From assembly GCA_000004985.1 (NCBI GenBank), contig GG739356.1: a stretch of DNA of 1,653 bases. One strand, given 5' to 3'. This document shows, one piece after another, positions 1 through 1,653 of the stretch. Position 1 is the first letter of the stretch. Each line of letters begins with the position of its first letter. Made by a program: the position numbers and the translations under genes. Source of the stretch: Naegleria gruberi. Taxonomy: Eukaryota. The notes below the pieces were generated by a model that did not search any database, was not told the origin of the DNA, and saw only the letters and a program-made list of their open reading frames with translations.

Positions 1-386
1 CCTACATCAAGTGGTTGATATAAGTGACTCAAGTGTGGTGGAATGGACATAACAATAATATTATTTTGCTTGGCATATTCCAACACATCAGAATCACAGT
101 GAGTGGAATGATTATCGTACAATAATAATACTGGTCTACTTGAAGGTATGTGTTCAATAAAGTTCTTCTTCATCCAACTCAAAAAGCAATTTGTTGTAAT
201 AAATCCATTCTCAGTAGCAAATACCGTTGCTTTACTATCCAAATCACTGAACATATCATCTGATACGGATTTTCCTTTATAAATAAATAGAGGAGGAACA
301 TATGATCCTGCAGCATTTCCACAAACAAGTATTGAACATGTTTCTCTAGATGAAGAAGTTACCATAGATGGATGACTTCCTTTTTT
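1..386 (-). CDS. Transposase segment 3: DDE_1 catalytic core (partial), with the second and third catalytic Asp.
   Basis: This frame is offset -1 from segment 2 and is open from the stop at 413-411 to the window start. Translation is ..KKGSHPSMVTSSSRETCSILVCGNAAGSYVPPLFIYKGKSVSDDMFSDLDSKATVFATENGFITTNCFLSWMKKNFIEHIPSSRPVLLLYDNHSTHCDSDVLEYAKQNNIIVMSIPPHLSHLYQPLDV. 'CgNAaG...PP.fIyKGK', 'llLyDNhstH' and 'P.hlSH.lQPLDv' are the conserved pogo DDE_1 blocks. The D-to-D spacing is 36 residues. Confidence 0.85.
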
Positions 387-838
387 TTGGCAAGAGTGTA
401 TCCTGTAGTTTCATTCCTTTGGATTCCTGTTTCATCACAATTATAGATATGGTCAGGCATTAAGTTATTCTTTTTAATTTCCTTCTCTAATTGATCAAAG
501 AATAATTCTACGACTTGGGAATTTTCACTGTCACTTCTAACTTGTTCAAGCCTTTCTGCTTCTCTAACAGCAATATCATGATTCCTACTTCTGAAGTCTT
601 GATACCATCCATCAGAGAGATCTTTTGGTTTATTGTACTTGCACTCATACATCTTGTTGGCTTTGTTAATCACATCATATTCATTGACAGGTAAATTATT
701 ATCATTCCTTTCAAATATCCACTCCTTTAATTCATCCTCTTCCTCTTTAGTAAAGTAGGTCTTTCTACCAGCATGTGAATTAATTGATGATCTTCCATTT
801 ACTAGATCATTAAAAGTTGTATCTGAATGTCGAATTTT
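359..838 (-). CDS. Transposase segment 2: Tc5/CENP-B-type HTH and start of the DDE_1 domain, including the first catalytic Asp.
   Basis: This frame is offset -1 from segment 1 and is open from 874. Translation is ..DTTFNDLVNGRSSINSHAGRKTYFTKEEEDELKEWIFERNDNNLPVNEYDVINKANKMYECKYNKPKDLSDGWYQDFRSRNHDIAVREAERLEQ...FFDQLEKEIKKNNLMPDHIYNCDETGIQRNETTGYTLAKKKEVIHLW*. 'LT.eEe..L..WI...g.pv....i..kA', 'fkaS.GW...F..Rh.i' and 'IyNcDETG' are canonical pogo/Tigger motifs. D1 codon at 436-434. The ORF track entry 359-673 is the Met-initiated tail of this segment. Confidence 0.85.
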   Translation of the reverse strand, partial: KIRHSDTTFNDLVNGRSSINSHAGRKTYFTKEEEDELKEWIFERNDNNLPVNEYDVINKANKMYECKYNKPKDLSDGWYQDFRSRNHDIAVREAERLEQVRSDSENSQVVELFFDQLEKEIKKNNLMPDHIYNCDETGIQRNETTGYTLAKKKEVIHLW

Positions 839-966
839 TTGGCTACGCTTCTGATGGATGCACCATTTGTGGTATTATAATATTCTAATGCTTTCTCTCT
901 CTTCTCCTCCTCTTCCTGTTGCTGTTGTTCATGTTCCTGCTTTTTTGTTAATTTCTTCTTAACCAT
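826..966 (-). CDS. Transposase segment 1: N-terminus with psq-type helix-turn-helix.
   Basis: ATG at 966-964 in context catcATGg (A at -3, G at +4), with no upstream in-frame ATG (TAA at 1005-1003). Translation is MVKKKLTKKQEHEQQQQEEEEKREKALEYYNTTNGASIRSVAKKFDI. The 'ALEYY..NGASIRSVAKKFDI' stretch fits the psq/CENP-B N-terminal HTH consensus (..g.s.r.vA..fgIp.sTL). The frame then hits TAG at 804-802. Confidence 0.65.
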
Positions 967-1029
967 GATGATGAAGGTGATCGGGATTATATTTTTTTCA
1001 TATTAAACATGGTTGTAAACTTTGGTAAT

Positions 1030-1050
1030 TTTATTGCAAAACAATTTATT
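1030..1050 (-). promoter_or_regulatory. Two AATAAA hexamers (minus strand, at 1050-1045 and 1035-1030) lie 55-75 nt downstream of the CobW-like stop codon. They are candidate polyadenylation signals for that gene.
   Basis: Plus-strand TTTATT occurs at 1045-1050 and 1030-1035. Position relative to the TAA at 1107-1105 is appropriate for a eukaryotic poly(A) signal. AT-rich background makes chance occurrence fairly likely. Confidence 0.3.
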
Positions 1051-1104
1051 CACCAAAACAAACAAACGATACGGGTAGAGAAGACCCACACTACTACATA
1101 TACA

Positions 1105-1653
1105 TTATAAAAACTTTGAAAGTTTACTATTAAAATTGTTCAAGATGATCGAAAATCGAGGGTGATCGGAATTGAAATATTTTGCCCTAGTTTGAGTTTT
1201 GAAAGGATTCTTCATAATTGACCACTTTTTAAACAATTCTTCCACATTCTCACCTGGTAACACCTCATCCTTTACCAAACACTTATCAAGAATTTCTTCT
1301 ATCGCCTTCTGGTCAAGATTTTGACCAATGAAAACAATTTCCTGTCGTCTGTCACCAAAAATTCCTTCAAATTTGAATTTCTTTTCAAATGTTTCAATTT
1401 CCTCTTTGGTAAACCTTTTAGATTTCTCTTCTTCTGATAAAGATGCTAACCAATAAGCTTTTGGTTGATAAGAAAATGAAGTTCCAGCAGTTGACCATTC
1501 ATAGATTAGTTTAGAATCGGTTGCCAACCAGAAGAAACCTTTCGATCTCAAAATTCCTTTGAAACTATCCTGCAATATTGTGGAGAATAATAATTCTGGA
1601 TTGAATGGTAATCTTCTTTGATATACAAATGAGGAAATTCCATATTCGGTTGT
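1105..1653 (-). CDS. COG0523/CobW-family GTPase (ZNG1/CBWD-like zinc metallochaperone), C-terminal portion. The CDS is 5'-partial and continues beyond the window end. Stop codon TAA at 1107-1105.
   Basis: Extending the 1105-1575 ORF to the window edge keeps the minus-strand frame open and gives TTEYGISSFVYQRRLPFNPELLFSTILQDSFKGILRSKGFFWLATDSKLIYEWSTAGTSF...WLASLSEEEKSKRF...FGDRRQEIVFIGQNLDQKAIEEILDKCL. The 'ygISSFVy.arRPFhP' linker, 'lRsKGffWla' and 'rr..lVfIGr.LD....l...l..CL' are the hallmark motifs of the CobW C-terminal domain. The ORF track's initial M at 1575 is a TTG codon inside this longer frame, not a true start. Confidence 0.8.
   Translation of the reverse strand, partial: TTEYGISSFVYQRRLPFNPELLFSTILQDSFKGILRSKGFFWLATDSKLIYEWSTAGTSFSYQPKAYWLASLSEEEKSKRFTKEEIETFEKKFKFEGIFGDRRQEIVFIGQNLDQKAIEEILDKCLVKDEVLPGENVEELFKKWSIMKNPFKTQTRAKYFNSDHPRFSIILNNFNSKLSKFL

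Follow-up and report, generated by a model that had tools for sequence, protein, structure and literature searches.

A frame break on an A8 run in a pogo/Tigger-type transposase gene is most probably an ordinary slippage mutation and not a programmed frameshift signal

Results

A pogo/Tigger-type transposon lies at the end of a CobW-type GTPase gene

The window, that is, the whole stretch of DNA analysed here (1,653 nt), has a GC content of 33% and carries its coding sequence on the minus strand throughout. A pogo/Tigger-type transposase gene extends from an ATG at position 966 to the window edge over three frames (966–826, 823–383 and 380–3), and a fragment of a host gene occupies the other side of the element end. 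The best protein matches of the transposase, P0001–P0004, come from Logan/ENA metagenome contigs of 33–35% GC (DNA loci L001–L004), and two further loci, L049 and L050, hold one and the same related element from two samples. The window comprises the following features.

1190–1653, minus strand: host gene fragment, C-terminal domain of a CobW/COG0523 G3E GTPase (Pfam CobW_C, 7.9e-23)
1188–1189, no strand: TA dinucleotide next to the terminal repeat (pogo/Tc1-type target site), read from the sequence
1162–1187, minus strand: 5' terminal inverted repeat, GGGCAAAATATTTCAATTCCGATCAC, matched in L002 (5' end), L003 (3' end, inverted) and the complete element in L049 (both ends)
967–1161, minus strand: subterminal or 5' untranslated region of the element, from alignment with relatives
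940–946, minus strand: second in-phase A_AAA_AAG, codons 7–9 (ACA AAA AAG), where the frame is unchanged; an internal control
826–966, minus strand: transposase segment 1 (M1 to I47), N-terminal basic/acidic region and first HTH
824–825, minus strand: first frame break, remnant CA, a 1-nt deletion in an ancestral CCN Pro codon (FDI-P-DTTF)
383–823, minus strand: transposase segment 2 (DTTFNDL..YNCDETG..YTLAKK), HTH_Tnp_Tc5 domain and first catalytic Asp
381–388, minus strand: A8 homopolymer run (T8 on the plus strand), the frame-break site; A6 or AAAATA in relatives
380–386, minus strand: A_AAA_AAG heptamer, in phase with the upstream frame; probably an indel by-product, not a demonstrated shift site
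3–380, minus strand: transposase segment 3 (GSHPSMV..LLLYDNHSTH..QPLDV), DDE_1 core, open to the window edge
359–361, minus strand: TAA stop of the upstream (0) frame, six codons past the AAG codon of the heptamer (..KKKEVIHLW-stop)

With both frameshifts conceptually mended, the repaired translation scores against Pfam as DDE_1 (PF03184, 6.8e-16) and HTH_Tnp_Tc5 (PF03221, 1.6e-8), and in the alignment ATG 966 matches the starts of P0001 and P0002. The first catalytic Asp lies in YNCDETG (445–425) and the second in YDNHSTH (119–99), and the window ends before the third catalytic residue. The two frameshifts aside, the 322 transposase codons contain zero stops and are well conserved; the transposon copy is young. 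The same domains characterize the pogo/Tigger superfamily (IS630-Tc1-mariner; CENP-B-type HTH and DDE_1, TA target), whose catalytic motifs YNCDETG and LLYDNHSTH also occur in the window transposase, and database relatives of the window protein are named “tigger transposable element-derived protein”. The window very probably covers the 5' two-thirds of a eukaryotic DNA transposon of the pogo/Tigger type, in a non-autonomous and decaying copy with a TA target, a terminal inverted repeat, a 5' untranslated region, HTH domains and a DDE_1 core. In contrast to known pogo/Tigger elements, this copy ends at the window edge, is broken by two frameshifts and belongs to an uncatalogued lineage with at most 63% identity to anything in 5.8 billion clustered proteins, among which no close paralogue of the repaired protein was found (best matches 54–63% identical). 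Likewise, the 54-aa, 97-aa and 182-aa ORF products have no exact match in a 153-billion-gene index.

The 5' end of the element was delimited against its relatives. L049 contains a complete element of ~2.1 kb with both ends flanked by TA (TA-GGGCAAAATTATGGAA...TTCCATAATTTTGCCC-TA), and the TA-flanked terminal repeat GGGCAAAAT..., found at both of its ends, is also found in the window. Specifically, the window holds the 5' end only, with TA at 1189–1188 and GGGCAAAAT... at 1187–1162, and the opposite end falls outside it. Because TA followed by GGGCAAAATATTTCAATTCCGATCAC (1189–1162) matches the ends of the relatives, the element begins at 1187. Additionally, the octamer CCGATCAC occurs twice on the minus strand, at 1162–1169 in the terminal repeat and at 977–984, 10 nt before the transposase ATG; it is kept at both places in L001 and L002, and the terminal-repeat copy is also kept in the inverted 3' end of L003. 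At least two matches to CCGATCAC with at most one mismatch arise in only 15 of 200 shuffles, and the octamer is possibly a candidate transposase binding motif.

On the host side, the CobW segment aligns with its best homologue, P0011, at 51% identity as far as ..NPFK, and P0011 itself has just six residues past the aligned NPFQ. The CobW ORF runs on into the element down to 1108, and the last 27 codons of this apparent ORF, RAKYFNSDHPRFSIILNNFNSKLSKFL and the stop, are element-derived. The insertion point of the transposon falls within the final few codons of the CobW-type GTPase gene, and the insertion therefore gives the G3E GTPase gene a chimeric C-terminus, in which the last host codons are replaced by a 27-aa transposon-end tail, RAKYFNS..KFL-stop (1108–1189, minus strand). 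An insertion common to the window and L003, with CobW in the 3' flank of L003, was rejected, since stops occur there in every frame. The host flanks beside the TA do share CCTTTCAAAA (window 1190–1210; L003 1749–1765), at most 7 nt from the insertion point, which may reflect chance or a target-site preference. In L048, the contig of P0011, a gene for an ASXH-domain protein and a TPR-CobW fusion lie nearby with short intergenic spacers, and this neighbourhood points to a compact eukaryotic genome as the type of host.

The transposase frame changes within the A8 run

On the minus strand, the site reads GCC (391–389) AAA AAA AAG (382–380) GAA (379–377). The upstream frame continues as ..YTLAKKKEVIHLW and then meets TAA at 361–359 (ORF 359..673), and the -1 frame, GSHPSMVTSSSRETCSILVCGNAAGSYVPP..., is open from 410 to the window edge, covering at least 126 codons with conserved DDE motifs. 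The heptamer A_AAA_AAG (386–380) is in the correct X_XXY_YYZ phase. The original prediction had located the frame break on A8 in GCC-AAA-AAA-AAG-GAA (391–377), a 0-frame stop at 361–359 and a -1 shift on A_AAA_AAG that restores the DDE block, and all of these coordinates hold. It had also announced a second, non-slippery frameshift in the gene, which the comparison with relatives identifies as the 1-nt deletion at 824–825.

In alignments with relatives, the frame break falls within the A-run, and nothing but the length of this run varies between its flanks, CTTGCC and GGAAGTCAYCCATCTAT, both of them conserved in the DNA. The break lies 15 codons past the first catalytic Asp, within the RNase-H-like catalytic core and not at a domain boundary of the OrfA/OrfB type. 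The coding sequence has only three runs of at least 6, and the A-run, as the longest of them, is the expected indel hotspot. At this base composition the motifs by themselves are unremarkable: of 200 dinucleotide shuffles of the window, 100 contain an A8 run and 70 contain at least two AAAAAAG. The non-random part is the coincidence of run and frame break, and this is exactly what homopolymer indel mutation predicts.

At 824–825, the window has GAC ATT -CA GAT where the relatives have ATT/ATA CCN TAT (Ile-Pro-Tyr). This deletion is non-slippery, private to the window copy and situated 148 codons upstream of the A8 run. It ends the ATG-initiated frame after 54 aa, and only a 54-aa peptide can therefore be made from the ATG, whatever happens at A8. 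L003 has a 1-nt deletion of its own (~30–40), CCTTA-TCC against CCTTATTCT in L002, at ~4 nt from the first break of the window (824–831); the two deletions are independent and hit the same short HTH-coding stretch.

Relatives read through the site in one frame

At the site of the A8 run, the window reads CTTGCC-AAAAAAAA-GGAAGTCAT, and its nearest DNA relatives read CTTGCC-AAAAAA-GGAAGTCA. Specifically, both L002 and L003 have CTTGCC-AAAAAA-GGAAGTCAC (Ala-Lys-Lys-Gly-Ser-His-Pro-Ser) in one frame, L001 has GCT AAA ATA GGA AGT CAT CCA TCT, and L004 has GCC ATT AAG GGT. In the four-way DNA alignment, L001, L002 and L003 show a clean 2-nt gap against the window, with the flanks conserved. A profile search added the clade proteins P0131–P0134 and P0173, and all nine clade proteins (P0001–P0004, P0131–P0134 and P0173), as well as L028, the closest JGI locus, have exactly two residues between Ala and Gly, in the variants TLA-KK/KI/IK/QK/KL/KR-G. 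The protein obtained by a -1 repair of the window, TLAKKKGS, has one Lys found in no clade member.

The wider family behaves in the same way. Among family proteins with a locatable YNCDET-type motif, 78 of 78 stay in one frame over the stretch printed past the site, a few of the 78 stopping before or just after it. A protein-profile scan of JGI metagenomes returned distant relatives only (at most 40% identity), which are informative on site conservation and not on counts of A8 versus A9; of the 43 JGI loci, a clear majority of those with a readable site continue in one frame, and a few are broken near it by private lesions, such as L036. The clade proteins, the 78 family proteins and the readable JGI loci are all free of a break at the position that corresponds to the A-run. 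The variable-run DNA pattern CTTGCCAAAAAAN{0,3}GGAAGTCAYCC had 0 matches in JGI metagenomes, IMG/VR and GTDB genomes.

Each of the five sampled relative loci, which represent four related elements, carries its own, different lesions, listed below, and L049/L050 again stand for a single element.

L001: GAG to TAG (FAT-stop-NGF)
L002: 2-nt deletion in a TGTG repeat
L003: CGA to TGA and a 1-nt deletion
L004: frame break on another A-run, within the linker that precedes the C-terminal Cys-rich domain
L049/L050: frame break in the corresponding linker, ahead of the C-terminal Cys-rich domain

The window frameshifts at 824–825 and 381–388 are shared by none of the relatives. Such lesions are what ordinary point mutation and short-repeat slippage leave behind in a decaying transposon family. 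In addition, frame-disrupting lesions that are private to a copy and absent in intact homologues, as expected of a transposon pseudogene, are what the window copy displays.

Unlike known pogo/Tigger elements, the relatives have an extra C-terminal Cys-rich (CxC-like) domain, a region that falls beyond the window edge. This CxC/CxxC-rich domain (e.g. CSCRSTCNTNKTCSCKKKGIACTKYCSCKGTC) follows a Lys/Glu-rich linker and lies at 1330–1657 in L003, 1637–2158 in L004 and 1835–2401 in L049; the Cys-rich ORFs that are called separately have no recorded Pfam family. The transposase and the Cys-rich part form one fused ORF in P0004 and P0132–P0134. P0003 (L004) and P0131 (L049/L050), of 408 aa each, are otherwise intact and are followed by the Cys-rich ORF in the -1 frame. 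In L004, the break (~1560–1580), the single frame break of that locus, sits on an in-phase CA-A_AAA_AAG-AAA (A7) and is in the -1 direction; at L049 1835–1838 and L050 1668–1671 there is a stop/start overlap, ATGA, where the fused P0132 has ~8 more residues. These breaks could be independent tolerated linker lesions, a short intron or something conserved.

Signals of recoding around the A8 run

The original prediction had proposed, as a check, to look for a stem-loop or pseudoknot ~5–9 nt downstream, as in -1 frameshifting sites of the dnaX/IS3 type. In pseudoknot-free minimum free energy (MFE) folding compared with 200 shuffles, no such stem-loop beyond the shuffle level was found in the 60 or 90 nt downstream. 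The 60-nt segment has an MFE of -9.8 kcal/mol (z -0.75; 45 of 200 shuffles fold as well) and the 90-nt segment one of -17.4 kcal/mol (z -0.63; 56 of 200). The sole local hairpin, GAAGU..ACUUC, starts at spacer 0 after the heptamer and is absent in L002 and L003. A search of Rfam gave no match above threshold, and the matches to DUF3800-II and wcaG at permissive E-values were rejected as chance, with 20 bits against gathering scores of 42–43.

With respect to programmed ribosomal frameshifting (PRF), the in-phase X_XXY_YYZ motif is present, yet at chance frequency; the homologues do not conserve a two-frame layout; and a complete product from the upstream start is precluded by the deletion at 824–825. 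Transcriptional slippage would call for a conserved A/T run, of at least 9 in the bacterial cases, and the run is A8 here and A6, AAAATA or ATTAAG in the relatives. PMC5009743 describes such slippage in bacteria on runs of 9 A/T. The same paper attributes the exceptional shiftiness of A_AAA_AAG in E. coli to the presence of a sole tRNA-Lys, and expects AAG to be firmly bound in organisms that have a tRNA dedicated to this codon. In human cells, AAA-coded lysines clearly repress translation when six AAA codons form an A tract of 18 nt (PMC4552401), and A8 is far shorter than this. Both the type of element and the ASXH-domain gene near P0011 suggest a eukaryotic host. Separate tRNA-Lys species are the rule in eukaryotes.

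Other causes of the frame change were rejected. An intron does not fit a contiguous alignment to relatives that differs by 2 nt only, and an alternative genetic code or a +1 site of the Euplotes type does not fit a break that is not at a stop codon. The in-frame TAG and TGA of relatives, furthermore, sit where other copies have GAG and CGA, which also speaks against an alternative code.

Discussion

In all probability, the break at A8 is an ordinary slippage mutation in an already broken pogo/Tigger-type copy and not a programmed frameshift signal. The two-residue spacing throughout the clade and the A6 run of the relatives make A6, by parsimony, the most likely ancestral state of the sequence, and the lesion most likely a net +2 insertion. 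An ancestral GCC AAA AAA GGA (Ala-Lys-Lys-Gly) would have gained two A's to yield A8, in a single +2 step or in two +1 steps; the slippage mechanism and the order of events are what we infer. An A9 (Lys-Lys-Lys) ancestor or intermediate specific to the subfamily of the window, whose best relative is 63% identical, may nevertheless have existed. The original prediction had included, among its three readings, a homopolymer deletion that a ninth A would mend, and had proposed to count A8 against A9 in other copies. This direction of the indel is most likely wrong: L002 and L003, which are relatives from outside the window's own subfamily, have A6, neither A8 nor A9.

The heptamer would then be the footprint of a mutation and not a signal. 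In the ancestral sequence, the run would have stopped at a codon boundary with G as the next letter (AAA-AAA-GGA): a net change of +2 or -1 puts this G at position 3 of a codon in the old frame, and an in-phase A_AAA_AAG is therefore written. About half of the frameshifting indels in an AAA-AAA-G run give the in-phase heptamer. Because any net +2 or -1 change produces it, and because the same heptamer stands at 946–940 without a change of frame, the motif has no independent weight. The earlier identification of a dnaX-type heptamer is right as to sequence and phase, and its weight as a signal is lost.

An artefact of sequencing or assembly appears improbable. In that case the real sequence would have A6 or A9 in an unbroken ORF, and the run length would have been miscalled, perhaps together with CC to C at 824–825. 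Length changes in mononucleotide repeats are a classic error type of long reads, and both lesions are of this kind (the A-run, and CC to C). Against this, the adjoining 464-nt CobW segment is uninterrupted and aligned end to end with its closest homologue, and an error starting from A6 would have to be +2 instead of the usual +/-1. Contigs of relatives in the Illumina/MEGAHIT style (k141_ names) have a similar density of lesions, including nonsense substitutions, which are not homopolymer errors; genuine decay is therefore usual in this family, and an assembly artefact is disfavoured.

Recoding, by -1 ribosomal frameshifting on A_AAA_AAG or by transcriptional slippage on A8, would supply a low, self-limiting amount of full-length transposase, much as in bacterial elements of the IS3/IS630 type; bacterial IS630 relatives use transcriptional realignment (PMC5009743). 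The in-phase heptamer and the open -1 frame with its DDE motifs fit this reading, as does the -1 break of L004, which likewise sits on an in-phase A_AAA_AAG (A7), and a low-level slippage-corrected product from the A8 site is physically possible. We nevertheless regard recoding as highly improbable. The break is common to no relative, and the shift product would have an extra Lys against the two-residue spacing; the frameshift at 824–825 makes the A8 site irrelevant to an ATG-initiated product; pseudoknot-free folding gives no stimulatory structure (z -0.75 and -0.63); and the break lies within the catalytic core instead of at a domain boundary. An AAG in the A site, moreover, shifts poorly in organisms with a dedicated tRNA-Lys(CUU), and the A8 run does not reach the 9 A/T of the bacterial slippage sites (PMC5009743). 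As for the coincidence with L004, about half of the indels at an AAA-G boundary give the signature, so that two cases out of two have p ~0.25. A related idea is hinted at by the two breaks on in-phase A_AAA_AAG (A8 in the window, A7 in L004), namely that A-runs in a Lys-rich transposase of an AT-rich host act as reversible on/off switches, with slippage providing a trickle of trans-frame transposase; this, too, is scarcely probable. Taken together, the second frameshift, the private lesions and the A6 relatives support the original leaning to a homopolymer indel, an error or a pseudogene, and its recoding alternative is not supported by the relatives, the folding or the upstream frameshift.

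As in the -1 PRF of E. coli dnaX and of IS3/IS1-family elements, the window has the identical heptamer in the correct phase, with the 0 frame stopping close by and the -1 frame running on for longer and encoding catalytic residues. Unlike those systems, it is without a downstream stem-loop in pseudoknot-free folding, its layout is not conserved in homologues, its host is eukaryotic, where A_AAA_AAG is outside the efficient sites, and its break lies inside the catalytic core with a separate frameshift upstream. In transcriptional realignment (Thermus dnaX, a Roseiflexus IS630-family element and potyvirus P3N-PIPO), an A run likewise joins two coding frames, and the window element belongs to the wider IS630-Tc1-mariner group; its run, however, is only 8 nt long, not conserved and private to one broken copy. 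In homopolymer pseudogenes partly rescued by slippage, such as the poly-A genes of Buchnera/Blochmannia and the “savior” indels in the G-run of herpesvirus TK, an indel in a mononucleotide run inactivates a gene, as here, and low-level slippage of polymerase or ribosome could in principle restore some product (PMC5009743). The window copy differs in that it is dispensable, gives no sign of selection for expression and has a second lesion that blocks the ORF.

If recoding were real here, it would be the first case in a eukaryotic cut-and-paste transposon, and an on/off switch, if true, would be a phase-variation-like, self-limiting mode of expression for a eukaryotic pogo family. On the preferred reading of a slippage mutation, the biological weight of the locus is small: it is one more decaying pogo/Tigger-type copy, from a lineage new to databases. 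The lesson is one of method: in AT-rich and lysine-rich genes, a slippery heptamer on a frame break amounts to evidence of recoding only when the two-frame layout is conserved in homologues.
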